From a virus: DNA of 64,000 nt. A model generated the notes under the pieces. It made no database searches. It was not told the DNA's origin and worked only from the letters and a program-made list of their open reading frames with translations. Positions 9,783-51,604 of this stretch are shown here, one piece after another; the first letter of the stretch is position 1, and every line of letters begins with the position of its first letter. The stretch spans positions 82,810-146,809 of the IMG/VR virus record IMGVR_UViG_3300020182_002648; one strand, given 5' to 3'. Position numbers and translations under genes: made by a program.

Positions 9783-10340
9783 TTATCGATACTTGCTCAT
9801 GTCGATACCCTGAGCGAGGGCTTTTGCTCGTGCAAAACCAGTCAACTTGTCCGGATCTGGTGCTACTCTGTCTGGTTCATCCTGGTGTTCCTCTGGATCT
9901 CCTTCGACTTCAGCCTTTTTGACCAGGTCCCCTACTTTAGCCTTGGCTTGTTTCTCGATGTTGCGGTATCTTTCTGCACTCATTGGTGGTTTGCCTGTGG
10001 TGAATGCACCAATTGCTTCAAAATATCGTTTGATATCATCTAAATTGTACTCATCTCCTGCCATTCTGCTCTCTAGTTGTGCTAGTTCTCTAATTGACAG
10101 GTCGGCTAGTTCTTTTTTGCTCATTGGTCTTCCAGCTTCATCAGCATCGTCCCATTGAACCAGCACTCGTTCAGCAGCTTGTTCCATTGCTTGGAGTTTT
10201 CTGTTCTTGGTGTCTCTGAATTCAGATTGTTCACCCTCCGGAAGGATGTTAACTTGACGCTTGATACCGGTCATTTTCTCATACGGGCTGCTGAAGTATG
10301 CTTCTTTTAAGATCTTGTCTACTGATTCATCGAAATTCAT
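9783..10340 (-). CDS. putative late/internal virion protein
   Basis: MNFDESVDKILKEAY N-terminus; AATAAATA 5 nt upstream (10346..10353). Confidence 0.5.
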   Translation of the reverse strand: MNFDESVDKILKEAYFSSPYEKMTGIKRQVNILPEGEQSEFRDTKNRKLQAMEQAAERVLVQWDDADEAGRPMSKKELADLSIRELAQLESRMAGDEYNLDDIKRYFEAIGAFTTGKPPMSAERYRNIEKQAKAKVGDLVKKAEVEGDPEEHQDEPDRVAPDPDKLTGFARAKALAQGIDMSKYR

Positions 10341-10354
10341 ATAGTTATTTATTA

Positions 10355-11059
10355 TCAGAACGCTGTATGCCTAGGTTTTTCTTCAGTATAATTACCGTAC
10401 GGGTGAAGCAACCGGTTCATTTTGAACTTATCCCTGGGGTAGTAATTCCACTTATCGTCCAATATGAACCAATGATCACGTAATATTATGTTCAGAAAAG
10501 GTTCATCCTTTTTATAGTGCTCATGGTGACTGTATTGCCTTATCAACCTCATGTAATCATCAGTTGTGTTGATATCGAGCCACGTATTAATATCAAAAAC
10601 CATCATACCAGCATTAAAAAACTTCCTGGACTCATCCCCATTAGCGTATAACTCTGTTAGATTGTAGTATTTCAATGATTCATGTACGGTTTTTAGTATA
10701 TAATGAGGCACAGCTCCTATAGGTTGTTGGTTAAGATCATGTCTCCATAGATCATATATACATCCAGTAGCAAACACATCACTATCTAGAAAGATCGCCC
10801 GGGTGATTGATTCATCTAACTTGCGGAGTATCTCTGGGATATACACCCGCTGGTGCATCAATGGTAGTTTGCTGATTTCATCTGATGGTTTAACGTACGT
10901 TATGTTATCATGAGAGATCATATCATCACTGGTTATTATATAGTAGTTGATATCACTCTTATCTTTCCTGTAGAACATGTTGATATAGTTGATTGATTTT
11001 AATGTGAGCTTATGGTATGTTGAACCGCTCACTAGATAGCAGATATTAACACTCATCAT
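10355..11059 (-). CDS. glycosyltransferase family 8
   Basis: IFLDSD, FFNAGMMV, DEPFLN, KWNY, KP motifs. Confidence 0.85.
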   Translation of the reverse strand: MMSVNICYLVSGSTYHKLTLKSINYINMFYRKDKSDINYYIITSDDMISHDNITYVKPSDEISKLPLMHQRVYIPEILRKLDESITRAIFLDSDVFATGCIYDLWRHDLNQQPIGAVPHYILKTVHESLKYYNLTELYANGDESRKFFNAGMMVFDINTWLDINTTDDYMRLIRQYSHHEHYKKDEPFLNIILRDHWFILDDKWNYYPRDKFKMNRLLHPYGNYTEEKPRHTAF

Positions 11060-11763
11060 ATCTTCAACTTAAATCTATAAGTATCGTCTTCAATCCATGA
11101 GCCTATATTCCAATGCATGCCAGCACCAGTGAGGGGTATGTTCATGTTTGATTCTTGTATTTTATATCTCTCTGTTTTTGAGAGAGACTCAAAACTTTGA
11201 TAGTCATGAGTAGTAGTGTTACAAATTGAACTGAACTTGTTATGACATACAGTCATATACCCACCGGCGGTGGTCATCATCACTTGATGATGTTTATCTG
11301 CCTCAGAGTCTCTACTATCAAGAGCGAATTGCAATCCTCTTATACAATAATTCATGAACTTGCTTCCTGGTACTGAGTAGAATATACTGTTAGTCAATAA
11401 TGGTTTATCATGAGGCCATCCTCCTAGACCATGCCCCGGGTGCTCTTCAAACAACACAACCTCGTCAGTAAGTAGGTGGCTAACATCTTTAAAACATTCG
11501 ATGTCTAAGTCACAATACAATCCACCATACTCATATAATATTAAGTATCTGCTCATGTCACTCCTAGATATATTACACTCATAACGCAAGTACAACCCCA
11601 TCAACTCCGGAAACTTCTCTTCTATCAATTTCTCTATAGATTCATCAGTCCAGAACACGTGGTTCCAATCACGGTGGTGCTCAATCCATGTTGCTCTCCA
11701 ATCAGCAAGCTTTGGTGGTATGTTATCATCTGACCACATCTGATGAATTGTCTTACAGGTCAT
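11056..11763 (-). CDS. glycosyltransferase family 32 (OCH1-like)
   Basis: KTIHQMW, RSDMSRYLILYEYGGLYCDLD. Confidence 0.9.
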   Translation of the reverse strand: MTCKTIHQMWSDDNIPPKLADWRATWIEHHRDWNHVFWTDESIEKLIEEKFPELMGLYLRYECNISRSDMSRYLILYEYGGLYCDLDIECFKDVSHLLTDEVVLFEEHPGHGLGGWPHDKPLLTNSIFYSVPGSKFMNYCIRGLQFALDSRDSEADKHHQVMMTTAGGYMTVCHNKFSSICNTTTHDYQSFESLSKTERYKIQESNMNIPLTGAGMHWNIGSWIEDDTYRFKLKI

Positions 11764-36974: not shown

Positions 36975-38192
36975 ATGATCGAGAAAATAAAGAATATACT
37001 TAAATTTAAAAATGATGTAAGCCTGCCTGACATAGAGGTCAACGAGGTGTCACAGACTTTATCTCAATCCATTGGATGGGGATTAACACAAAACAACATA
37101 CCACGGGCTTGGACAGAGTCTAAGGGCAAAGGAGTTGTCGTGGCTGTGATTGACACAGGCATGCCCATTCATCCAGATATAGGGGACAATGCTATTGAAG
37201 GTAAATCCTTCATACCTGGTGAGAACATATATGACAACCATGGACATCAAACTCATTGCGTTGGTATCATATGTGCCAAGAATAATGAGTTTGGAATGGT
37301 CGGAGTTGCTCCGGAATCTAAATGTGTTTGTATCAAGGGATTGAGCAACAGTGGCAGTGGCAGTTCTAAAGGAATCGCAGATGCACTAGATTATTGTTTG
37401 GAAATCAAGCCGGATATCGTGAGCATGAGTCTAGGTAGTTCCAGAGCAGACCCAGCCATGCATGAGGCTATCAAGCGACTGGTCAAGGCTGGTATAGTTG
37501 TAGTATGCGCCGCTGGCAATAGCGCTGCAGCTGGTGTCAATTATCCTGGAGCATTTCCAGAGACTATAGCTATTGGTTCACATGAAGTTGATGGTAAGCT
37601 GTCATGGTTTAGTAGTGTAGGTACTCAAGTCGATTGGGCTGCACCTGGAGGTAAAATATACAGCACGTACACCAAAGGACGATATGCAGAGCTGAGCGGA
37701 ACTTCAATGGCATGTCCATTTGTAGCTGGTGTTCTAGCTCTATTGATATCTAAATGGAAGAAGGACGGTAGAGAATACACTGTGGATGATGTTTGGTTGT
37801 CGTTACTTTCCAATACTATAGACAAGTTTACACCTGGTGAAGACAATCACTTTGGTAATGGCATCATTGATGTGTTGTCTCTTTTAGATGCTGGGCCGGA
37901 ACCTGAACCAACACCGGAACCTGAACCAACACCGGAACCAACACCGGAACCAACACCGGAACCAACACCGGAACCTGAACCAACACCGGAACCAAAACCC
38001 GGGGTATGGATGAGACAACGGACATGGGTTACTATTGGGTTGTTTTTACTAACCACAATAGGCATACTGTCACTAATAAATCACCACATGTCTATTGACG
38101 TTCTAGAAGAGATCGATTGGGATCAACGACTAGAGGAGGACTTGGAGAGCAGAGGACTAACGGAAGAGCAATGGCGCTCTATGAGGCGTTAA
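36975..38192 (+). CDS. subtilisin-like S8 protease with Pro-Glu-Pro-Thr linker and C-terminal TM anchor
   Basis: VIDTG, HGHQTHCVG, AAGN, GTSMACP; ATTAAATA 5 nt upstream. Confidence 0.92.
   Translation: MIEKIKNILKFKNDVSLPDIEVNEVSQTLSQSIGWGLTQNNIPRAWTESKGKGVVVAVIDTGMPIHPDIGDNAIEGKSFIPGENIYDNHGHQTHCVGIICAKNNEFGMVGVAPESKCVCIKGLSNSGSGSSKGIADALDYCLEIKPDIVSMSLGSSRADPAMHEAIKRLVKAGIVVVCAAGNSAAAGVNYPGAFPETIAIGSHEVDGKLSWFSSVGTQVDWAAPGGKIYSTYTKGRYAELSGTSMACPFVAGVLALLISKWKKDGREYTVDDVWLSLLSNTIDKFTPGEDNHFGNGIIDVLSLLDAGPEPEPTPEPEPTPEPTPEPTPEPTPEPEPTPEPKPGVWMRQRTWVTIGLFLLTTIGILSLINHHMSIDVLEEIDWDQRLEEDLESRGLTEEQWRSMRR
37896..37994 (+). repeat. 12/18-bp tandem repeat encoding PEPT/PEPEPT
   Basis: Repeated ccggaacc(tgaacc)aaca units. 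Confidence 0.9.
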
Positions 38193-38688
38193 GAGAGTCT
38201 TTTTTGATAATTTTAAGTGCTGCTTCGCGATCTAACCAGTCGTGAACCAGCACTTGTTTGTTGGACAAATCCTTGTAGTGTTGAAAGAAATTCTTAGTCA
38301 CATCTAAGAATAACCGGCTGACTTGATGTATGTCGGTTTTTCTTTTAACTGCGGATGTAGGCACGCCTAAGATCTTGTAATCCTTATCACCATCGTCATC
38401 CATATCTAACACTCCTATCACGCGACACTCTACTAATGTGGTTCTCTCTATGGGAGCATTAGCATACACCAGGATGTCTAGTGGGTCGCCATCAGCACCT
38501 AATGTGTTAGGTATAAACCCGTAATTGGCAGGGTAGACCATGGCGCTCGTTAAGCATCTATCCAGTCTAAATATCTCTAAATCTTTATCATATTCATACT
38601 TCGTACTGGTTCCTTTGGGTATCTCTACAATAGCGTTTACTATGTCCGGGGAGTCCTTATGTAGGGGAATCTTGTACAGGTTTATCAT
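38179..38688 (-). CDS. ppa: family I inorganic pyrophosphatase
   Basis: EIPKG, KYE, YPANYGFIP, DGDPLD, DKDYK; CATAAATA 5 nt upstream. Confidence 0.95.
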   Translation of the reverse strand: MINLYKIPLHKDSPDIVNAIVEIPKGTSTKYEYDKDLEIFRLDRCLTSAMVYPANYGFIPNTLGADGDPLDILVYANAPIERTTLVECRVIGVLDMDDDGDKDYKILGVPTSAVKRKTDIHQVSRLFLDVTKNFFQHYKDLSNKQVLVHDWLDREAALKIIKKDSLNAS

Positions 38689-38723
38689 GTGATTATTTAT
38701 GATAGTGTTGTGTGATTAAATAC

Positions 38724-38754
38724 AAAAAAGCCTGCCAACTTTCGCTGACAGGCT
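38724..38754 (-). terminator. rho-independent terminator
   Basis: AGCCTGTCAGC-GAAA-GTTGGCAGGCT followed by T run, downstream of the OMP gene. Confidence 0.85.
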
Positions 38755-38781
38755 AGATATTTTTAGCTCTTATTCCATCAA

Positions 38782-39441
38782 TTAGAAGTCCATGGACAGT
38801 CCAACTGATACAATAGTTTCCCCATCGACGTCTTCTGCATCAATGTAATCGACTCCCAAGTTACCCTTGAGATCACCAACGACCACACGTGAAGCACCCA
38901 GACCAGCAATGAAGTAGTCTCGGTCGAGTGTTTTGGTCACTTCAGTCCGTCCAACACCAGCTCCAACCGTCAATGCGGCAAGGTCAGTGTCGAACGTGTG
39001 ACTGATTCCAAGCTCAGTAGTATACAACTCATCGTCGAGATTGTAAAACACTGTAACTGTTGGTGACAATACTACATCAGCTGACAAACCAATGAACAAT
39101 TCACCAACTGACGCTCCGTCTACTTGCTCACGGTGAGTGTACCCACCAGTTGCAGCTAACAGACCGTCAAGGAAGGTTGATGACACACCTCCGACGAATT
39201 CATACGTATCACTCGTGCCTGCTAGAGGTGAGCTCATGAATCCGGAGAAGTACGCTCCGATATTATCAGAGACATCCCCTTGGACACCTAGTTGAGTTTG
39301 GATTGCTTCAGAAGACACGAGAGCACCACGATAAATGTAGTCGGACTTGTACCCCGTGCTAATATTACCAGACAGCTCTCCTGCCGTTACGTTATTGATT
39401 AAGCTGCAAAGCAGCGTTAGAATAGTTAATTTAACTTTCAT
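38782..39441 (-). CDS. outer-membrane beta-barrel protein (TorF/Gcw_chp-like)
   Basis: Signal peptide, SDYIYRG, alternating beta strands, C-terminal Phe; promoter 39448..39476. Confidence 0.75.
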   Translation of the reverse strand: MKVKLTILTLLCSLINNVTAGELSGNISTGYKSDYIYRGALVSSEAIQTQLGVQGDVSDNIGAYFSGFMSSPLAGTSDTYEFVGGVSSTFLDGLLAATGGYTHREQVDGASVGELFIGLSADVVLSPTVTVFYNLDDELYTTELGISHTFDTDLAALTVGAGVGRTEVTKTLDRDYFIAGLGASRVVVGDLKGNLGVDYIDAEDVDGETIVSVGLSMDF

Positions 39442-39483
39442 GCCATTATTATAATGGCTTCTGAAGCTAATGGCAACTGTTAC

Positions 39484-39600
39484 CTACTCTCCAAATTTGT
39501 ACCCGAAACAATCTTCATCTATCACACTTTCATAAAACCCCAATAAACTATTAAGTTCTGAGCATAATCCACGTATTGTGAGTTTGTATGTATAATTCAT
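39484..39600 (-). pseudogene. 38 aa chimeric remnant (GT-like start, sulfotransferase-like end)
   Basis: MNYTYKLTIRGLCSELNSLLG...DCFGYKFGE*. Confidence 0.45.
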
Positions 39601-40256
39601 TTCTCTAAAATTATTCTCATTAATACAGGGTTATCATCTTTGTAGATAGATAAATCGTCTTGCTCGTTGAAATAAAGCAATTTAAATCCAAGAGATAGAA
39701 CTGTATTTAAGAACTTTTGTGAATCTACGAATCTACGAGTATGTCCATCATTAAAATATGTTGTGTCACATATATGCTCACCCACTCCGAATTTTGTATC
39801 TTTGGTTGTGCGAACTTCAATACAAAACAAACCCTCTCCCCTTAAACATTCGAATACTTTGGTTAATAGTCTATCTTGCTCTTCTGATGTAATTGAATGA
39901 ATAGTGAACCGAGAATAAAACACATCAATTGGTAACAGGTCTGGATGATATTCATTTGTATGTTTATCATCTGAGTGATGCGAGGGTTTGATAAAATCAT
40001 CCACAAGAAACTGTAGTCTATGGTGAGCTTTGCCTTCTTTAACTGAAGAATCTATAGACTGATCAACAGCCAGAACATCATGACCTAATTTAGCGAAATA
40101 AAACGAGTCTCTTGCATTTCCACACCCTAAGTCCACGATTGATCGCTGATGTTTAAAAAAGTTTTCTTCGCAAAATTTAGCAAAAGTGCTACATTCAGAT
40201 ATATCCTCTCTAAACGAGTGATCTCTATAAAATTTATTCCAGTATTGTTTGTCCAT
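39597..40256 (-). CDS. class I SAM-dependent methyltransferase
   Basis: IVDLGCGNARD, AVDQS, YSRFTIH. Confidence 0.9.
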   Translation of the reverse strand: MDKQYWNKFYRDHSFREDISECSTFAKFCEENFFKHQRSIVDLGCGNARDSFYFAKLGHDVLAVDQSIDSSVKEGKAHHRLQFLVDDFIKPSHHSDDKHTNEYHPDLLPIDVFYSRFTIHSITSEEQDRLLTKVFECLRGEGLFCIEVRTTKDTKFGVGEHICDTTYFNDGHTRRFVDSQKFLNTVLSLGFKLLYFNEQDDLSIYKDDNPVLMRIILEK

Positions 40257-40843
40257 TATCGTTTTCCGTGTCTAGTATGAGCATGCTTGTCTTTTATTGG
40301 TGTGCGCCAATCACTACCATAAAGTTTCTGAAAATAAACCTCTGGATTTACTGGGCATGCAAACTCTCTATTGTTGAAGCTCACTGTGTTATTTTTTGAG
40401 AAATCCGCAGGTGTCAAAGTGCCAAAAGACGGATGATTGATTAAGTTTTCTGATTCCGTATTTTCTTTTTCATAGAAATAAATATCTATATAATCCCCGC
40501 CACGAGTGAATGAGGTAATCAAAGGGAGCAACCTAGTTAGTATCAGCTTATTTTCTTTCATCTTTTCTACGATTTTGATAAGCTCCTCCTCATTATCAAT
40601 CCATACAGCTATATCTGTATCCGTATCATGCTCGATAAGGTTTCCATCTCTGTATATCCCCAGTAGAGTACCAAATACAATACAATACTTGACTTCAAGA
40701 TGTTCAAAGATATCAACCGTGGTTAACAGGTTGGATGTTGACTGTTGTATATTGATTGGAGTTCCGGGCTGGTTAGGATGATTTGAGAACCGATTTTGCC
40801 CGGTGATTCGAGGGTACTTACGTTTGATTTTATTTATTTTCAT
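40256..40843 (-). CDS. LicD-family nucleotidyl/phosphotransferase
   Basis: FGTLLGIYRD...HDTDTDI, YG.DW.TP. Confidence 0.88.
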   Translation of the reverse strand: MKINKIKRKYPRITGQNRFSNHPNQPGTPINIQQSTSNLLTTVDIFEHLEVKYCIVFGTLLGIYRDGNLIEHDTDTDIAVWIDNEEELIKIVEKMKENKLILTRLLPLITSFTRGGDYIDIYFYEKENTESENLINHPSFGTLTPADFSKNNTVSFNNREFACPVNPEVYFQKLYGSDWRTPIKDKHAHTRHGKR

Positions 40844-40853
40844 TTTATAAATT

Positions 40854-41015
40854 TTACATTTTTGTTATAATCCCATGCATTTTGTTTTTGCAGTGAGTCT
40901 TGTTTGTTGTTTTGGGAGTATCTAATTGTAATCCAGTTTTTTTAGCCAGCACATATGCAGCTGCATATTGTATCAGTCGGTTTCCAAGGCGACCTCGATA
41001 TTTCATATCAATCAT
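40854..41015 (-). pseudogene. truncated GT11 alpha-1,2-fucosyltransferase-like remnant (53 aa)
   Basis: MIDMKYRGRLGNRLIQYAAAY = GT11 motif I, then early stop. Confidence 0.6.
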
Positions 41016-41980
41016 AACTTGCTATCTAATCCTTTTAAACTTAAAATTTCAGTAGATATAAATTTATTATCAATTTTATTTATATCAAAATCATTTTTAT
41101 ATATTTCCACGAGCTTTGCTAACAGAAACTCCGAGAATCCATATGCAGCACAATTGTGTTTAAAGAACATATCATGAAATTTGCGAATATTGTTCTTCAT
41201 ATACAATACACGTTCTTTGTCTTCTAATAACAATGTAACTTGTTGATGTATATGTTCCATGCTATGTTCTCGTAAATCAAATCTTAACACGTAATCGTCG
41301 ACATTCGTAAATATATTTTCCCAGCCATAGTCATTCATAGAATTGATCATAATCGGAATACACCCACATCTTATTACATCAAAAAATGTATGTGTCCAAA
41401 TTCTATCACCACGTAACATATACACGACATCTGATTTGGATAAATTATTTAAATAAGTTTCATATGTTCCTGTTTTGAATCCATCTCTGTAGATCTTCTC
41501 TTTAAATAAAGAAACATCGAATCTTTTGTCATCTACTTTGTTGTAAAAAGAAAGAACGTTACCTCGTGTTTCATGAGTGTTGTTACCAGACCAAAAAACT
41601 TTATTGTGAAAAGTTTCATTTTTAATTGTTTTATTGTCGCCAAACTTAGGGCCGAGAGGAGTCGGTATGACATAAGGAATATCGCATAAATCGTTTGTTG
41701 AAAAACAAAAGTTACTAAAGTTTGGACGAGGTGAAATTGCATTATCAACACAAAATCCTTCACGGCACTTCAACAAACTTAAGTTTACATATTTGCGAGG
41801 ATTGCGAAGAATAGAAACCTCATTGGGTTTTACTTTGTTTGAATCATATGCATGCCAGTGCTTTTCCGTAAAATACAAATCGGCATCTTTAGATGAGCCA
41901 TCAACGAAATTGATTTTTTTATGAAAAGTGTCGCAAAACCGGTTTTGCTTTAATCCAAAATCTGTTGCTATTGTTATCAT
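41012..41980 (-). CDS. exostosin/GT47-like glycosyltransferase
   Basis: FWSG...R, Y...L..S....LRGD, FFDVIRCGCIP. Confidence 0.7.
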   Translation of the reverse strand: MITIATDFGLKQNRFCDTFHKKINFVDGSSKDADLYFTEKHWHAYDSNKVKPNEVSILRNPRKYVNLSLLKCREGFCVDNAISPRPNFSNFCFSTNDLCDIPYVIPTPLGPKFGDNKTIKNETFHNKVFWSGNNTHETRGNVLSFYNKVDDKRFDVSLFKEKIYRDGFKTGTYETYLNNLSKSDVVYMLRGDRIWTHTFFDVIRCGCIPIMINSMNDYGWENIFTNVDDYVLRFDLREHSMEHIHQQVTLLLEDKERVLYMKNNIRKFHDMFFKHNCAAYGFSEFLLAKLVEIYKNDFDINKIDNKFISTEILSLKGLDSKL

Positions 41981-41981
41981 A

Positions 41982-42701
41982 TTATAGTAATTTATTTAAG
42001 AAATCATCATATTGTTGTATAAAAGGAAATTCACTCAATAATTTGCTCTGTTCCTCATTGCTGAGTTTTTTCTTCCACTCATAAATGTCTGTGGTTCTTT
42101 TGTGAGATTTTAACTTACCCGCTTCGATTAAATCGCTTTTATCTTCAATCGGTGCGAAAGAGTATTTCCATTTCTCGTAAGTTTTATCGTATACAGAAGC
42201 CATGTCAAGAGTTTGTAACAACTCTTTTAAAAATTCACTAAAATTACCTATCATGAACTCATACGGTAATATAACTTTGTTGGTTGCCGGCAAGTTCCAA
42301 AATTTTTCAATTTTCTTTGAATTAATGGGGGTAACTCTATTGATATAATTCGCAAGTCCTTCTTTTTGAATTTTTTGCCGTTTCGACTCAAATTGTTCTT
42401 GTGTAAAACCAGCAGGGCACTTATGAGTGTATCCGAACGAATAAAACATAGATATGGTAATACCAATAGGATTGCGAGGTATGAAAATAAAATTGTCATT
42501 AGCGAGATTAACACCAACAAGTTTTGCCGGATTTGCTGGATTGATCAATCGCTCAAATCGCAACTTCATTAAGCCTGAATCATTATTAACCACAATATCT
42601 TCTCCCACTTTGATTCGCGGAAGATCGAAAACACTCTTCAAAATTTTTGAAACTATTGTTGATCCGCACTTGTGCGGTGCATGTATTATATATTTTTTCA
42701 T
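41982..42701 (-). CDS. sulfotransferase domain protein
   Basis: HAPHKCGST 5'-PSB, RNP...SMFY 3'-PB, YE; likely start 42701. Confidence 0.75.
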   Translation of the reverse strand: MKKYIIHAPHKCGSTIVSKILKSVFDLPRIKVGEDIVVNNDSGLMKLRFERLINPANPAKLVGVNLANDNFIFIPRNPIGITISMFYSFGYTHKCPAGFTQEQFESKRQKIQKEGLANYINRVTPINSKKIEKFWNLPATNKVILPYEFMIGNFSEFLKELLQTLDMASVYDKTYEKWKYSFAPIEDKSDLIEAGKLKSHKRTTDIYEWKKKLSNEEQSKLLSEFPFIQQYDDFLNKLL

Positions 42702-42747
42702 TTTTGTTTTTTTTTCGTTCCCTAAGAAAGTATACTTTTTTATTTTG

Positions 42748-43380
42748 CTAAAATTTATATCCAAAGTAATTTATGTCCCACTCAAATAATTTTGAAACCT
42801 TTTCTTTGGTCTCGTCGTTGTAGTATTTTCTATAATCATATTCTACCCGGTTAGTATTATGCTTTTGGTGTGAGAGATTATAATCAACAATTCCCAGTTT
42901 ATTAAAAACGACCTTCGCATCGTGTTCTATGTTTTCTTGTCTTATGAAGTGATCTATACATAGTTCGTTGTTATAATGAAACATTGATTTATATGTGTTG
43001 TTACGGGTAAAATGATCTCTCTCTAGATTATGACAAACCCAATCATTAAATGTAGATGTTACTCCACGATGAACCGATATATGATGGTAAAAAGAGACAA
43101 CCCTATCAAAAGGATTTCTTATAACTGTAAATATATACCATTCCTTTCTTTTAAAACAATCTTCAGAATACCTGTCATTAATAAATTTAACAAATTGAGG
43201 TAGTGCTCCATGTACAGATAGATAATAATTTATGCCTTCGTTAGATAAATCCATACCAAACGGCTCTAGTTCTTTATTTCCATCGAAGGATCCATACTGA
43301 CGTCGCAATACCGCCCTAACACTTGTACCAGCACATTTAGGTGGATGTATGAACATGAATTTTTCTGAATTATTAATCAT
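42748..43380 (-). CDS. sulfotransferase family 2
   Basis: FIHPPKCAGTS, RNPFDRVVSFY, DINYFGYKF. Confidence 0.9.
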   Translation of the reverse strand: MINNSEKFMFIHPPKCAGTSVRAVLRRQYGSFDGNKELEPFGMDLSNEGINYYLSVHGALPQFVKFINDRYSEDCFKRKEWYIFTVIRNPFDRVVSFYHHISVHRGVTSTFNDWVCHNLERDHFTRNNTYKSMFHYNNELCIDHFIRQENIEHDAKVVFNKLGIVDYNLSHQKHNTNRVEYDYRKYYNDETKEKVSKLFEWDINYFGYKF

Positions 43381-44195
43381 TGATCATCAGTTATAATTCT
43401 ATCAAGCTCATTACCTTTTACACTTAAGTCAACATATCTGTCTGGTTGTTGGGTAGCTCTACTGCTATAATGACCAAATATATCGTCATAATTTGTTTCA
43501 GCTATAAGTTCTAGACCATCTTCTTTCCACCTATCAATCCAGAAAAAATCTTCATGAGTAAATTCATGTGCATATGCTCCCATCACATTATATTCAGACA
43601 TAATAGGTAAATCTTTTAATACATCCACAAGAGGGGTACTCTCATTGATTCCTTCAATGTACTCTCGTACCAGTTTGCTTAAGTTCTTCGGATATACTAG
43701 AGGCATCCTGAACATGAATTCAAACTCGACATTAAAATTAAGAATTTCTGATGTAGTGTCTTGCCATCTCTTGACCCCTTCAATAGGATGTCCAATTTTT
43801 TGTAAGCGAGGTAATAATTTGCTGTATCTATTTTTTACTAAAAGAGGCTTATTGTTTTTAAAAAATCTATCTGGTGTATGCTCTTTTTTAAATAAGCTAT
43901 CTGCATCAATATGACATATGTAATCAGTGTCAGTCGGGACATACAGGTCACTTAATAATTTCATATATTGCTGCCGCACATATCCCCTTTTAACGTGTTT
44001 CGCTTCTTTGTTTATGAAATATTTTTGTTCTATTGAATCAAGGTAACGCTGTGTTTCAATGCAATCATTTTCATGGTCGTCTATAATTACCACGTTATCA
44101 TGATATCCTTTACAAAACTTTTTGATGGACTTGAGGTTGTACTTTAAGAACTCAAGGTCCTTATCGTAAGTTATTGTAACGATGGAAGTTTTCAT
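43377..44195 (-). CDS. GT-A fold glycosyltransferase (DUF6492-like)
   Basis: GYVRQQYMKL, HIDAD, SEYNVMG. Confidence 0.7.
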   Translation of the reverse strand: MKTSIVTITYDKDLEFLKYNLKSIKKFCKGYHDNVVIIDDHENDCIETQRYLDSIEQKYFINKEAKHVKRGYVRQQYMKLLSDLYVPTDTDYICHIDADSLFKKEHTPDRFFKNNKPLLVKNRYSKLLPRLQKIGHPIEGVKRWQDTTSEILNFNVEFEFMFRMPLVYPKNLSKLVREYIEGINESTPLVDVLKDLPIMSEYNVMGAYAHEFTHEDFFWIDRWKEDGLELIAETNYDDIFGHYSSRATQQPDRYVDLSVKGNELDRIITDDQ

Positions 44196-44506
44196 TTTTT
44201 ATTTTTTTTGTAGTCTGTTAATTTTACTTGCATACGTGATGCTATTGATGTGATTATTAATATCATTTTTTGCAGACCCTTATCATCTTCGTAACAATTG
44301 TATAATACTCTTAGTAAATCGCACACAACCTTCGGGTTTTCCGGGGATATTTTATCCCTGTTTTGAAGGTGTAATAGACACCATTTTAGTCTTTCTTCGT
44401 CATGTTTTGTAGTGCCACGTAGATTAACTTCACCGGTAATTATACTATCAGCGAACTGCTTAAGTTGCTCTTTTGTTTTTATTTTTGTTATATCGATTGT
44501 CTTCAT
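44192..44506 (-). CDS. hypothetical protein
   Basis: ATGA-coupled ORF. Confidence 0.55.
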   Translation of the reverse strand: MKTIDITKIKTKEQLKQFADSIITGEVNLRGTTKHDEERLKWCLLHLQNRDKISPENPKVVCDLLRVLYNCYEDDKGLQKMILIITSIASRMQVKLTDYKKNKK

Positions 44507-44521
44507 AAATGTAATGATGTT

Positions 44522-45445
44522 TCAAGAATTACAATATCTCTCCCATAATTTTCTGTCCCAATATGTGCGGTCAAGAAAAGTTTGTTGTGTCTGATCGTCA
44601 AGTTCGTTGAATTCAAGTTTGATCTTGTTAGGTGTGTTGTTCCGCCAAACATCAACAACCTCTACCTCCACATCTGATCTCATGACACCGTATGCTCCGT
44701 GAAACACCTGGTCAATCAATTGGTCTGTGTTTTGTATGCTTTTGACTATCCAATGCCTCAAGTATTGATCACATGCGGTCAGGTGTTTAGGTTCAATTAT
44801 GGTATCATCTGATAGATTCAACAAATTGCGAATGAACCAGCTGTCCTCTAGTTCATCTGAGTTGATATACTTGATGAAATCTTCTGCTTGAATGGCTCCA
44901 TGATTTGGTTCATGTGCGCTGGCATCTGTGGTCAAATAGTTGTACATCGATTGAGTTCTGCTCCATGGATCTCTCAGGATGGTGAAATTGAGCAGATGTT
45001 CACGTCCAGTGGCTTGTTGAATCAATTGCAAGGCTTGTCTGTGCTGACTGTAACCATGAGAGTAATCATCTGGCATGTTTGAAGCACCATCACCCACTGG
45101 ATCGACACTCACAGAAAAAACCTCAATCTCACCAGATTCAATCGCCTCAACAAAATGTACTATATCCACCCAATCGGAATTTCCGTCTCCACTTGGGTTG
45201 CTTTTGAAGTGTTCATTGTTGATATGTACATCTGTCGGAGTGTATATCACGCAGGTCAATTGCTTGTGACCTCCTACGTTCACAATACTTCTTCGAATTC
45301 GATCAGACGTCCAACCCGGGACAGATCTAGATCCCATCTCTATACTGTACACACGACACAACATCATCATCCAACCCAAAGTGTACGTACCGGCGTTTTT
45401 TGCTATGTGGTAGAACACTGGAAGTAGTGATGGTGATGAATTCAT
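44522..45445 (-). CDS. sulfotransferase family protein
   Basis: FYHIAKNAGT, LRDPWSRTQSMYNY, D.KLW. Confidence 0.8.
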   Translation of the reverse strand: MNSSPSLLPVFYHIAKNAGTYTLGWMMMLCRVYSIEMGSRSVPGWTSDRIRRSIVNVGGHKQLTCVIYTPTDVHINNEHFKSNPSGDGNSDWVDIVHFVEAIESGEIEVFSVSVDPVGDGASNMPDDYSHGYSQHRQALQLIQQATGREHLLNFTILRDPWSRTQSMYNYLTTDASAHEPNHGAIQAEDFIKYINSDELEDSWFIRNLLNLSDDTIIEPKHLTACDQYLRHWIVKSIQNTDQLIDQVFHGAYGVMRSDVEVEVVDVWRNNTPNKIKLEFNELDDQTQQTFLDRTYWDRKLWERYCNS

Positions 45446-46233
45446 GTCTTTTGATGTAAGATAATAGTATATGGATGTTTGGCTAATATATCCTTCTCAG
45501 AAATACCAGAATCGCAAGGGAGAGAGTAGTTAGCTATTATGTTTGTGTCTATCACTTGTGACAAGTATTTAGCTCCCTCAGGTGAATTAACATAATACCA
45601 TATGGCTATATCATAATTTAAGCGTGCATACGCTTTCTTGTGTATATATCTATACAACAATTCCTTGCTACCTTTCATAATGTCATATAATTCATCACAA
45701 TTCTTGTATAACGCGATTCCATTAAGATGGTATCTCCACTCGCTATCCGGTAATTTCTGTTTACCCTTGTATCTACTACCACCTATAATAAACTCCTTCA
45801 TATTACAGTAATGGACTAGTCCATCTAACCAATATTCACTCATTGGCCTTGAATCTGTTTCTATGACCATAACGAAATCATGAGATTTAGATTTAAGATA
45901 ATCGAACGTTCTATAGAAAGATTGATTAGGCCCGTTTGATTGTCCTAATTCATGTTTAACATCTACTTTATCATCGTGCGTGTATATATCTTCTTCAGCA
46001 GGGATATTACAGTTGTGTATATCTAGAGAGTTGACACTCTTATTGCTCTTGATGTAATCAAGCTGACTCGAATCGACATCAGTGTTAAGTGATATGATAA
46101 TATCGATCAACCGGTTCTCTGAAACACTCTCAACATATCTATCTATACACTCTTTAACATCACCAGATATGAGCTCTGATTTTGTAGTGATTAGAACTAA
46201 CGCGATCTTGTACTCCTCAGATCGTAACGGCAT
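45442..46233 (-). CDS. putative GT-A glycosyltransferase
   Basis: VMVIETD, HLNGIALY, island context. Confidence 0.5.
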   Translation of the reverse strand: MPLRSEEYKIALVLITTKSELISGDVKECIDRYVESVSENRLIDIIISLNTDVDSSQLDYIKSNKSVNSLDIHNCNIPAEEDIYTHDDKVDVKHELGQSNGPNQSFYRTFDYLKSKSHDFVMVIETDSRPMSEYWLDGLVHYCNMKEFIIGGSRYKGKQKLPDSEWRYHLNGIALYKNCDELYDIMKGSKELLYRYIHKKAYARLNYDIAIWYYVNSPEGAKYLSQVIDTNIIANYSLPCDSGISEKDILAKHPYTIILHQKT

Positions 46234-47060
46234 TACTCCGGACGTTTCCCGGTTGGTTTCCCGTCCTGACCTATGATACCAGCTCTGATCTTAGTGGCAG
46301 ACACTTCTTGTAACTCTTTGCTCAATTCCAATTGCTCGATGTTGTATCCAACACCGCGACCGTAAAACACATCCATTATGTTAGGTAGTTCGATAACCTT
46401 GATCTTGTCCCCAAATTCCACGCATGCAGCGTGTATCTCCGCTTTGACTTTCTCAAAGTCATATGGGTTACTGTCATCAATTCCACCAACGTCTCTAAGA
46501 GCTATGCAGCATTGACCTGTACGTTTCACAGCTTCCGCCACAAGAGTTTTGTGACCAACATGAAAAGGTTGATACCTACCAATTAACAATGCTGTAGGAG
46601 CTTGATTGTCCCACTTCTCGGTCTCGTAAATAGCTTCAAGAGCTTGTTCACACCACTCATCAGGTGTACCATCAGTTAAAATCAAATCTTTCTCATCCCA
46701 TCTAGCATCTTTGGTAGGATCCTCAAACATTTTGTTTGTGTCAGCGTATCTACCTTCTTCAATTCTGTTGACCCATATAACAAGATCAGGATTGAATAGC
46801 TCTCTAGCTTCTTCTGTGGGACAGCAAAAATCTGAAACTACATAACCACCACCAAGTGTGGCCCAGTCGGCAAGTTTGCCCATTCGACGTGCATGTTCAT
46901 TACGATCTTCCGGTGTGAATCCTAGATCCTTGTGGATCTCTTGCCTGATAGCATCAGCATTAAACCATACAGCTTGAAGCTTAGGAACTAGCTTTTCTGC
47001 CAACGTTGTCTTGCCTGAACCAGGAAGGCCCATGATTAAAATTTTTCGTTTTAAGCGCAT
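46233..47060 (-). CDS. cysC: adenylyl-sulfate kinase-like domain fused to HxGH nucleotidyltransferase
   Basis: GLPGSGKTT, NADAIR, DLGF...R, FE.P; then GRYQPFHVGH and VSATKIR. Confidence 0.8.
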   Translation of the reverse strand: MRLKRKILIMGLPGSGKTTLAEKLVPKLQAVWFNADAIRQEIHKDLGFTPEDRNEHARRMGKLADWATLGGGYVVSDFCCPTEEARELFNPDLVIWVNRIEEGRYADTNKMFEDPTKDARWDEKDLILTDGTPDEWCEQALEAIYETEKWDNQAPTALLIGRYQPFHVGHKTLVAEAVKRTGQCCIALRDVGGIDDSNPYDFEKVKAEIHAACVEFGDKIKVIELPNIMDVFYGRGVGYNIEQLELSKELQEVSATKIRAGIIGQDGKPTGKRPE

Positions 47061-47065
47061 ACAAA

Positions 47066-47073
47066 TACTTATT
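47066..47073 (-). promoter_or_regulatory. late-type promoter AATAAGTA, 5 nt before cysC ATG
   Basis: Member of recurrent NNTAARTA-N5-ATG family. Confidence 0.6.
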
Positions 47074-50295: not shown

Positions 50296-50338
50296 CAATT
50301 AGTTGCTATTTCTCTGTATTTATGTTATAATTATATAT

Positions 50339-51604
50339 ATGGACGAACTCAACAGAAGACAATTTGTAACACAACTAGCAAAAACGTGCCTGGGTGTGGG
50401 TATGTTACCTCTCACGCAGAACTACATGCATGCTGATCAACTGAAAACATCACGTGTCATGGCCAAAGCGCAACATGTGATATACTTGAACATGAGTGGA
50501 GCCATGAGCCATGTGGACACATTTGATCCAAAACCAGGCACAACCAGTCAAGGACCTGTACAACCAATACAATCAAGCGCGGATGATATACAACTGTCTG
50601 AGTACTTACCGAACATAGCATCACAAATGCATAACGCAGCACTGATCAGATCTGTCAAATCAAGTCAAGGTGCACATGAACAAGCCAGTTACTTGATGCA
50701 CACCAGTTATCAAAAGAGAGGCACAATCTCGCACCCCACATTCGGCAGCTGGGTGAGCAAATTAAAGGGTAGTAAAAACACAACAATTCCCAACCACGTG
50801 AAGATCGGAGGAGGTCCTGGGCATGCTGGTTATCTAGAAGCCAAGCACGGGCCAGTACCAATTGGCAATCCAAAAGCTGGTCTGGCCAACAGCAAGCTGG
50901 CTGAATACTTAGGTACCAGTCGATTCGACCGCCGGCTCATGGTGTCATCTGCAATGAACAAGACTTTCACGGAGAGTTACCCGCAAAAGAAAGTGAGAGC
51001 ATACACTGATCTATACAAAGATGCGGTCAAGTTGATGAGAAGTACCGATTTGTTAGCGTTTGATATAGAATCTGAACCAGAGAGCATGCACGAGTTGTAT
51101 GGTGATAGTAATTTTGGTCAAGGTTGCCTGCTAGCCAGACGATTGATCGAGCATGGTGTGCGTTATGTGGAGGTGACCAGAGGAGGTTGGGACACACATG
51201 ATGATAATTTTGAAAGAGTCGCGGACAATTGCCTGGATGTTGACAATGCCGTTGGCGCGTTGCTCAGAGACCTGGACAGAAGAGGGTTGCTGAGCACCAC
51301 GCTCGTGGTGATGACTTCTGAATTTGGTCGCACTCCGGATATCAATCCCAGAGACGGTAGAGACCATTGGCCTAATGCATTCAGTGCCATGTTCGCTGGA
51401 GCTGGTATCAAAGGAGGTACATTGTATGGTAGTAGTGATGAGTTAGGCAAACGAGTTGCCGAGCATCCAACCAAACCAGAAGACCTGAATGCTACAATAG
51501 CACATTTAATGGGTATGTCCACTCTGGATATTCATTACTCACCTAGTGGCAGACCCTTCAAGGTGGCTCATGAGGGTACACCTGTTATGGATATAATCAA
51601 TTGA
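50339..51604 (+). CDS. DUF1501 protein with Tat signal
   Basis: NRRQF twin-Arg, SHVDTFDPKP, LLARRL.E.GV, GWDTH, SEFGRTP, GRDHWP; promoter 50303..50331. Confidence 0.92.
   Translation: MDELNRRQFVTQLAKTCLGVGMLPLTQNYMHADQLKTSRVMAKAQHVIYLNMSGAMSHVDTFDPKPGTTSQGPVQPIQSSADDIQLSEYLPNIASQMHNAALIRSVKSSQGAHEQASYLMHTSYQKRGTISHPTFGSWVSKLKGSKNTTIPNHVKIGGGPGHAGYLEAKHGPVPIGNPKAGLANSKLAEYLGTSRFDRRLMVSSAMNKTFTESYPQKKVRAYTDLYKDAVKLMRSTDLLAFDIESEPESMHELYGDSNFGQGCLLARRLIEHGVRYVEVTRGGWDTHDDNFERVADNCLDVDNAVGALLRDLDRRGLLSTTLVVMTSEFGRTPDINPRDGRDHWPNAFSAMFAGAGIKGGTLYGSSDELGKRVAEHPTKPEDLNATIAHLMGMSTLDIHYSPSGRPFKVAHEGTPVMDIIN

Follow-up and report, generated by a model that had tools for sequence, protein, structure and literature searches.

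The stretch of DNA analysed here, referred to as the window, comprises the final 64 kb of the 146.8-kb IMG/VR virus record IMGVR_UViG_3300020182_002648 (estimated completeness 65%), whose source is a large, uncultured marine tailed phage. On its minus strand, a gene encoding 275 amino acids (aa) joins a P-loop domain resembling adenosine 5'-phosphosulfate (APS) kinases to a nucleotidyltransferase (NTase) domain of about 120 residues with an HxGH motif, and heads a run of mostly overlapping, translationally coupled genes from 47060 to ~39597 in which sulfotransferase-like and putative glycan-modifying proteins are encoded (Table 1). An earlier interpretation made from the letters alone, referred to as the sequence-only reading, had claimed such a fusion at the head of a sulfation island and proposed that it makes 3'-phosphoadenosine 5'-phosphosulfate (PAPS), the small domain acting as a stripped-down ATP sulfurylase. 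The open reading frames (ORFs) and motifs lie where that reading had put them, with GRYQPFHVGH at residues 161-170 and VSATKIR at residues 263-269, and the two-domain architecture was observed and is strongly conserved. What was observed comprises this architecture together with conserved residues, folds, gene neighbourhoods and phyletic distributions, as described below; the two catalytic activities, the use of sulfate as acceptor and what becomes sulfated are inferences. On sequence and model evidence, the reading that is tentatively favoured is a self-contained PAPS synthase with a minimal sulfurylase domain derived from nicotinamide mononucleotide (NMN) adenylyltransferases (NMNATs).

The protein is a conserved two-domain enzyme with an APS-kinase-like N-terminal domain. 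This domain matched APS_kinase (PF01583) with 48.3 bits against a cut-off of 21.1, over residues 7-88 and model positions 5-90 of 152, and the NCBIfam CysC model TIGR00455 gave 44.5 bits, far under its cut-off of 138.7. The P-loop, GLPGSGKTT at residues 11-19, meets the Walker A pattern GxxGxGK[ST]. Human and fungal APS kinases in the PDB were matched at an E-value of 1e-7, the P-loop, LGF and EDR lining up and NADAIR..LGFTPEDR of the fusion aligning to LDGDNIR..LGFSPEDR of APS kinases. Among 59 diverse homologues, down to 30% identity, K17 is invariant and D36, R39, F48 and R53 are invariant or nearly so; the human counterparts of the last four are D89, R92, F101 and R106, of which the Arg, Phe and Arg residues hold APS. 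The first Asp of DGDxxR is replaced by Asn throughout the kinase family of the fusion. An AlphaFold model built from the homologue alignment reached a predicted local distance difference test (pLDDT) score of 93 and a predicted TM-score (pTM) of 0.76, and its top Foldseek matches were all APS kinases (E-value 1e-7, target TM 0.6-0.74), gluconate and sugar kinases being just slightly weaker. Sequence and model together suggest that this domain probably makes PAPS. As an APS 3'-kinase, it would have kept the P-loop, the catalytic Asp, two Arg residues predicted to hold the phosphosulfate and two aromatic residues predicted to sandwich the adenine, with the lid and the C-terminal half trimmed.

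The C-terminal domain gave a weak Pfam match to CTP_transf_like (fusion residues 159-183), and the NCBIfam NadM-type NMNAT models scored at most 32 bits against cut-offs of 127-449. Fused, split and CysC-fused forms of the small NTase share the invariant motifs GR[YWF]QP[FW]HxGH, NP[FY], PNI...YGR[GD]VGY and ISATxIR. R44, at the end of strand 2, and R90, within YGR[GD]VGY, are invariant and family-specific (domain numbering; R44, R90 and H22/H25 are R189, R235 and H167/H170 of the full protein). A profile of the family searched against the PDB matched only NadM/archaeal NMNATs (2qjt, E-value 2e-10; 1f9a, 3e-10), over the ATP-binding first half (first ~65-77 positions; chain ~5-88) and the ISxT tail. 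The domain shares GRxQPxHxGH, the NPF motif and ISxTxIR with these enzymes; unlike them, it has the family-specific R44 and YGR[GD]VGY and lacks two helices, ~30 residues relative to the M. jannaschii NMNAT. The missing parts are the helix after strand 3, which from NMNAT structures we take to be the carrier of the NMN-binding residues, and the helix that follows it. The domain was modelled with a pLDDT of 88, and in the VIA fold comparison NadM NMNAT and phosphopantetheine adenylyltransferase (PPAT) both scored Z 10.3 and NadR Z 9.1. The ATP sulfurylase of T. thermophilus (1v47) ranked sixth with Z 8.6 (118 residues aligned, rmsd 3.5), and other Sat structures scored Z 5.7-6.5. A structural comparison with Sat and NadM, proposed by the sequence-only reading, thus recovered the fold shared with Sat, with the higher score going to NadM. 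As the HUP/HIGH nucleotidyltransferase fold is common to the whole superfamily, it does not decide the acceptor.

The genes that follow the fusion on the minus strand are listed in Table 1. The 263-aa product of the first of them gave no match in Pfam, NCBIfam and PHROG searches, and homologues with 32-38% identity adjoin the fusion in three related loci (L023, L030, L031). Three sulfotransferases had been claimed for the island. Sulfotransferase 2 is recognised by Pfam and belongs to the most frequent neighbour family of the fusion; the other two have no Pfam match and were detected by a hidden Markov model (HMM) built from 42 Sulfotransfer_2-like genes near the fusion in related phages (the neighbour HMM), the third weakly. 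The GT-A, GT47-like, LicD and methyltransferase genes of the same claim are supported by Pfam matches, the GT2 match being weak. A gap of 168 nt separates the GT47 gene from the LicD and methyltransferase genes. Downstream of these, NCBIfam and PHROG searches assigned no family to the beta-barrel-like protein, which has homologues near the fusion in 11 related loci. The inorganic pyrophosphatase gene (ppa), which the claimed island had included, is not in the operon: it forms a separate unit behind a strong intrinsic terminator, and pyrophosphatase is missing from three of nine near-complete relatives.

Table 1. Fusion gene, island genes and transcription signals in the window (coordinates of the window; aa, amino acids).
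Feature	Position	Strand	Length	Evidence or remark
Fusion gene	46233-47060	-	275 aa	APS-kinase-like P-loop domain and ~120-aa HxGH NTase
Fusion, N-terminal domain (residues ~1-150)	46611..47060	-		Divergent APS-kinase-like P-loop kinase
Fusion, C-terminal domain (residues ~151-275 and stop codon)	46233..46610	-		Minimal HxGH nucleotidyltransferase, candidate non-canonical sulfate adenylyltransferase
TAARTA-N5-ATG motif at fusion gene start	47058..47071	-		TAAGTATTTGTATG
Protein without family assignment	45442..46233	-	263 aa	One-base overlap with fusion gene end
Sulfotransferase-like protein 1	44522..45445	-	307 aa	No Pfam match; neighbour HMM, E-value 5e-8 (first round)
104-aa protein	44192..44506	-	104 aa	No family match in Pfam or PHROG
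DUF6492/GT2-like putative glycosyltransferase	43377..44195	-	272 aa	PF20102, 25.2 bits; PF00535, 19.2 bits, under cut-off
Sulfotransferase 2	42748..43380	-	210 aa	Sulfotransfer_2 (PF03567), 40.7 bits, whole length
Sulfotransferase-like protein 3	41982..42764	-	260 aa	Weak; neighbour HMM, second iteration only, E-value 1e-4; no Pfam match
GT47 exostosin-like glycosyltransferase	41012..41980	-	322 aa	PF03016, 34.5 bits (cut-off 33.4)
LicD-family phosphotransferase	40256..40843	-	195 aa	PF04991, 34.2 bits
S-adenosylmethionine (SAM)-dependent methyltransferase	39597..40256	-	219 aa	Several methyltransferase Pfam families match
Sigma-70-like promoter of beta-barrel-like gene	39476-39448	-		11/12 matches
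Secreted outer-membrane beta-barrel-like protein	38782..39441	-	219 aa	Signal peptide in sequence
Intrinsic terminator between island and ppa	38729..38754	-		11-bp stem, then T run
TAAATA-N5-ATG motif at ppa start	38686-38699	-		
Inorganic pyrophosphatase (ppa), family I	38179..38688	-	169 aa	NF002317, 163 bits, E-value 6e-48; under the model's 200-bit cut-off

The G+C content falls to ~33% in the middle of the island (40001-44000, the sulfotransferase/glycosyltransferase part), against ~41% in the fusion gene and the flanks, as would be expected if a variable island followed a conserved gene. An equal fall was observed at 16-24 kb of the window, in a second glycan/radical-SAM cluster, and both stretches look like variable, possibly acquired, islands. 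Elsewhere, the window encodes a class I ribonucleotide reductase interrupted by a GIY-YIG endonuclease gene, a subtilisin-like protease and tail fibre proteins. A 433-aa protein with a twin-arginine translocation (Tat) signal, a putative DUF1501 member encoded on the plus strand at 50303-51604, has homologues in eight related loci, beside the fusion in several relatives. Outside the window, the same record carries two further sulfotransferase genes. No match to isolated phages was obtained by megablast with 20 kb of the window.

Both the fusion and ppa had been described as having late-type TAARTA-N5-ATG starts. The motif is real in the window, with 16 sites against 2.7 expected and none of 100 shuffles reaching 16, and copies of it stand before the fusion gene, ppa and several genes for structural proteins (example sites 27013, 36964, 48266, 52470 and 63567). 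As a 'late' signal it is not conserved upstream of the orthologues: of 61 homologous starts compared in related loci, just four have it, the majority showing instead a GTGTA-type motif at a distance of 10-12 nt from the ATG (in loci L008-L034, immediately upstream of position 10001). There are two apparent classes of start-proximal motif, TAARTA-N5-ATG, six-fold enriched in the window, and the GTGTA type of the fusion orthologues. If these motifs are promoters, their short spacing to the ATG would imply near-leaderless transcripts.

The family of the fusion is abundant, with 4,587 matches at E ≤ 0.001, and corresponds to the PHROG family phrog_10255, annotated just as 'kinase'; literature searches found no paper describing the fused NTase or its link to sulfotransferases. 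In close relatives, the NTase half shows ~90% identity and the kinase half ~65%. For the analysis of gene context, 46 IMG/VR loci were fetched and all ORFs within 10 kb of the fusion were clustered (50 loci). The most frequent neighbour was the Sulfotransfer_2-like family, present in 16 of the 50 loci (42 copies) by clustering and in 18 (51 copies) by HMM. Sulfotransfer_2 genes occurred in 20 of 29 related records and in eight of the nine near-complete ones, scattered and with up to 11 per genome. Four genomes (G088, G091, G098 and G101; loci L010, L013, L023 and L030) each carry 9 to 11 of these genes in several islands, an unusually large sulfation toolkit for a phage. The family I pyrophosphatase (PF00719) was found in 13 of the 29 related records and six of the nine near-complete ones. 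The claimed absence of canonical sat and cysDN from the window extends further: the entire 146.8-kb record yielded neither Sat (PF01747) nor CysD/CysH (PF01507), and searches of the nine near-complete relatives likewise gave no Sat and no CysD. More distant homologues of the fusion, with 37-39% identity, are encoded by Xylella phage Salvo and its relatives among Xanthomonas and Stenotrophomonas phages.

The small NTase is coupled to APS-kinase-type domains in four arrangements and in either order. A search of representatives clustered at 50% identity, followed by Pfam scans, revealed one in which it precedes, in a single chain, a canonical CysC of full length (P0262; PF01583, 212 bits). This marine family of 177 clusters adjoins genes for a major facilitator superfamily transporter and a tetratricopeptide repeat/2-oxoglutarate (2OG)-oxygenase protein, and 2OG-oxygenase genes flank it in two loci (L149, L150). 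In a second phage group, kinase and NTase are separate adjacent genes. The divergent kinase, whether or not the NTase accompanies it, is also often joined to DUF4118 membrane domains (P0121, P0193, P0197, P0188 and P0203). DUF4118 is the kind of membrane domain found in KdpD sensors, and these fusions suggest membrane-anchored forms of the kinase. Moreover, on the contig of an unrelated T4-like phage (L155, 4670-10896), the divergent kinase lacks the small NTase and is fused to an adenylyltransferase of the HldE domain II type. The operon also encodes a 591-aa sulfotransferase, three genes upstream of the kinase fusion, a cupin, a PfkB kinase and an epimerase. It looks like an ADP-heptose pathway combined with sulfation, and the proximity of kinase and sulfotransferase ties the kinase once more to sulfation.

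Outside phages, a scan of species-representative genomes gave over 500 occurrences of the small NTase, most of them in Pelagibacteraceae (SAR11). There it occurs in split form, kinase (135 aa) and NTase (125 aa) being encoded by two overlapping genes. Two SAR11 genomes checked in detail (G001 and G002) contained no Sat, no CysD and no canonical CysC; they carry sulfotransferase genes (one in L135), AprB, and genes of the sizes of NadD and CoaD. In G001, the CoaD-sized gene belongs to PF01467 and an ORF resembles CoaE from its N-terminal sequence (L135, 10982-11482). With these NadD-sized, CoaD-sized and CoaE-like genes present, the pair would be dispensable for the synthesis of nicotinamide adenine dinucleotide (NAD) or coenzyme A (CoA). 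Two candidate roles were dropped on these grounds: the NTase as the only NMNAT of SAR11, in view of the NadD-sized gene, and a CoA synthase combining PPAT and dephospho-CoA kinase, suggested by the tied best fold score of PPAT, in view of the CoaD-sized and CoaE-like genes of G001.

Across a sample of 101 Pelagibacterales genomes, the small NTase was present in 72 and sulfotransferases in 73. CysNC occurred in nine genomes, never together with the NTase, and CysD in eight of these nine, adjoining CysNC (G115, G118, G120, G142, G144, G170, G178 and G202). Under a hypergeometric model, the NTase and CysNC sets would share no genome with a probability of 4.8e-6, uncorrected for phylogeny. The kinase and NTase pair and CysD-CysNC are therefore alternatives within Pelagibacterales. 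As the CysD-CysNC genomes contain no second PF01507 gene, they have no CysH, and their CysD-CysNC set appears to serve PAPS rather than assimilation. This exclusivity is the strongest indirect support for the pair as a complete PAPS synthase. Elsewhere the NTase is rare, strong matches being found in 2 of 81 Alphaproteobacteria and 1 of 401 Pseudomonadota sampled, so few that a wider co-occurrence test was impossible; the organism carrying the NTase-CysC fusion was not revealed in these samples.

Two further SAR11 loci were recorded beside these results. In L071, a gene for a HalD/WelO5-like 2OG-Fe(II) halogenase/hydroxylase (10373-11224; PF23169, 39.7 bits) follows the kinase and NTase pair, and ~2.3 kb further downstream lie two genes for small membrane proteins that, on sequence alone, resemble YeeE/YedE sulfur transporters. 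In G001, a cluster in L134 (6512-12186; C1:119511-125185) resembles the Campylobacter Cj1415-1418 O-methyl-phosphoramidate pathway in ORF sizes and N-terminal sequences. It encodes a further CysC-like kinase of 140 aa, a methyltransferase, an NTP-transferase, a protein resembling glutamine amidotransferases and a sulfotransferase-like protein, and one of its ORFs, with 765 aa, matches in size the glutamine kinase of the phosphoenolpyruvate-utilising type.

Taken together, the conserved fusion, its linkage to sulfotransferases, the lack of a canonical sulfurylase, the missing NMN-binding part, the coupling to APS-kinase-type domains and the exclusivity in SAR11 make a stripped-down sulfurylase the best single reading of the small domain, plausible from sequence and model if short of probable. 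Under the PAPS synthase reading, the C-terminal domain would be an NMNAT-derived HxGH nucleotidyltransferase that lost its NMN-binding helices and most likely transfers AMP from ATP onto sulfate, yielding APS and pyrophosphate. The fused kinase would pull APS formation forward, as would the pyrophosphatase in phages that encode one. The resulting PAPS could supply the three sulfotransferase-like enzymes of the island and the two encoded elsewhere in the record, and these may decorate a glycan jointly with the GT2-like, GT47, LicD and methyltransferase enzymes. Sulfation of virion glycans and mimicry directed at hosts of the Planctomycetes-Verrucomicrobia-Chlamydiae (PVC) group, as envisaged by the sequence-only reading, are speculation.

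Several observations weigh against the PAPS synthase reading. The closest matches of the C-terminal domain in both sequence and fold are NMNATs and PPAT. An hhalign comparison of its family with nine Sat catalytic domains gave a probability of 2.4% over 23 columns around HxxH, and the NTase profile retrieved no Sat from the PDB at E ≤ 10. The QxRN motif of Sat (QxRNPxHxxH) is absent, with the NMNAT-type GRYQPFHVGH in its place, and equivalence of the invariant YGR[GD]VGY to the Sat GRDHAG loop could not be shown. By its sequence, the small NTase is not a member of the Sat family, and the detectable kinship with Sat implied by the earlier proposal does not reach beyond HxxH. If it is a sulfurylase, it would therefore be a convergent one from an NMNAT-like ancestor and not a reduced Sat. 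In phages, the other conserved neighbours of the fusion serve mostly nucleotide metabolism and repair (ribonucleotide reductase, dUTPase, dCMP deaminase, ThyX, PhoH and UvdE). In three relatives (L002-L004), no sulfotransferase gene lies inside the 10 kb around the fusion, and the downstream genes show no homology to the island genes of the window. The complete 55.6-kb genome of Salvo contains no gene from three sulfotransferase Pfam families, and a NADAR gene lies two genes upstream of its fusion. The kinase-HldE-II fusion shows that a domain joined to the kinase does not have to catalyse the neighbouring step. In SAR11, the exclusivity may stem from one or a few clade-level events, and AprB means that APS could come from sulfite without a sulfurylase. 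Three NTase-positive genomes also carry Sat (found in four of the 101), and eight genomes with sulfotransferases have neither PAPS system, possibly as incomplete assemblies. Separately, Salvo_29 was considered as a sulfotransferase on a weak Sulfotransfer_4 match and rejected, as PDB and PHROG searches gave no support.

The alternative that best survives these data, unlikely as it is, is that the protein serves as an APS kinase only: the N-terminal domain would convert APS made by host CysDN, Sat or AprAB into PAPS, and the NTase would be regulatory, structural or engaged in an unrelated adenylylation. The dissimilarity of the NTase to Sat, AprB of SAR11 as a possible source of APS, and the T4-like phage kinase, which is fused to HldE-II, lacks the small NTase and lies close to a sulfotransferase, all speak for it. 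In addition, cysC without a sulfurylase is a known class of phage auxiliary gene, enriched in larger genomes and transcribed in lakes according to one report (PMC10914622). However, a dispensable NTase is hard to reconcile with a half that is better conserved than the kinase in close relatives and that recurs with APS-kinase-type domains in four arrangements, and the Pelagibacterales pair replaces the entire CysD-CysNC set, not CysC alone.

A quite improbable alternative is that the product is another PAPS-like or ADP-linked donor, the NTase adenylylating some other small anion, for example a phosphonate, phospho-alcohol or phosphoramidate precursor, before the kinase adds the 3'-phosphate. 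A precedent is the Campylobacter jejuni route of Cj1416 and Cj1415 to 3'-phospho-cytidine diphosphoramidate, in which Cj1415 is an APS-kinase homologue with a non-sulfate substrate. As in the fusion, an APS-kinase homologue acts there after a nucleotidyltransferase, giving a 3'-phosphorylated donor for glycan decoration. Small-anion NTase domains also exist, such as the cytidylyltransferase domain of Fom1 (5x3d, Z 8.5), SAR11 genome G001 has a Cj1415-1418-like cluster that includes a CysC-like kinase (L134, 6512-11291), and the island includes LicD and a methyltransferase. The Campylobacter route differs in relying on another NTase of larger size, on a glutamine kinase and on an amidohydrolase, and the recurrent partners of the fusion have the sulfotransferase fold. 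Furthermore, no ORF of ~770 aa, the size of the Campylobacter glutamine kinase, was found in the island, an amidohydrolase homologue not having been searched for, and the SAR11 pair is exclusive with a CysD-CysNC set that makes PAPS. The variant raised by the sequence-only reading, a CDP- or ADP-linked alcohol donor for LicD, is disfavoured and its CDP-alcohol form was dropped, because among the 53 fusion-carrying loci compared LicD occurs only in the window, with homologues in none of the other 52.

About as improbable, lastly, is an enzyme resembling NadR for NAD+ salvage or counter-defence, in which the P-loop domain would phosphorylate nicotinamide riboside and the NadM-like domain adenylylate NMN, restoring NAD+ during infection: NadM and NadR NMNATs are the nearest relatives of the C-terminal domain, the fusion sits amid nucleotide-metabolism genes in marine phages, one report places NADAR genes alongside phage genes for NAD salvage (PMC9503650), and Salvo, with NADAR and no sulfotransferase, keeps the idea a live rival at least there, but the part of NadM that holds NMN is deleted, the kinase retains the substrate residues of APS kinases, NadV was not detected in the 10 phage records searched, the nine near-complete relatives included, SAR11 already has a NadD-sized gene, and neither the fusion of the NTase to canonical CysC nor the exclusivity with CysD-CysNC would be explained. 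NadR likewise joins an NTase to a P-loop kinase; it differs in its reverse domain order and in a kinase of its own type rather than the APS-kinase type. AAA_28, which we take to be the NadR kinase family, scored 17.8 bits with the fusion kinase, under its 27-bit cut-off, against the 48 bits of APS_kinase.

Among known systems, metazoan PAPSS1/2 (1x6v, 1xjq) come closest in plan to the proposed PAPS synthase, with a homologous N-terminal APS kinase followed in one chain by an adenylyltransferase of the HxxH superfamily, and with PAPS as the product proposed here. They differ in their size of ~620 aa and in a Sat-type sulfurylase with a PUA-like subdomain and the QxRN and GRDHAG motifs, whereas in the fusion the second domain is NMNAT-like with ~120 aa and the kinase has no recognisable second half of PF01583. 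The fusion is thus an analogue of PAPSS and not a member of that family. CysDN with CysC or CysNC would share the proposed chemistry, and in Pelagibacterales it shares the phyletic slot of the pair; however, CysDN is a GTPase-coupled PP-loop sulfurylase with a fold unrelated to that of the small NTase, and canonical CysC matches all of PF01583 (as in P0262), in contrast to the partial match of the fusion kinase. The phage cysC auxiliary genes are similar in being APS-kinase-like phage genes enriched in large genomes and transcribed in situ; unlike the function proposed here, they are read as boosting host assimilatory sulfate reduction (PMC10914622).

To our knowledge, just two enzyme types, Sat and CysDN, are recognised as activating sulfate. 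It is possible, and we propose it with some reserve, that the NMNAT-derived HxGH domain of ~120 residues constitutes a third class of ATP sulfurylase, and that, paired or fused with a trimmed APS kinase, it forms a minimal PAPS synthase, which would feed up to about eleven sulfotransferases per genome in a large clade of marine phages and would also be present in most SAR11 genomes, where CysDN is lacking and Sat mostly so. If so, this miniature sulfurylase would supply a missing piece of SAR11 sulfur metabolism, as these genomes have sulfotransferases and AprAB and no recognised sulfurylase or canonical CysC, and the most abundant bacteria of the ocean would be able to activate sulfate or to regain ATP from APS made by AprAB. 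A tiny single-chain generator of PAPS would also be of use for enzymatic sulfation. For the phages, genes now annotated as 'cysC' would have to be read again, not as boosting sulfate assimilation by the host, but as supplying PAPS to a large sulfation toolkit of the phage itself.

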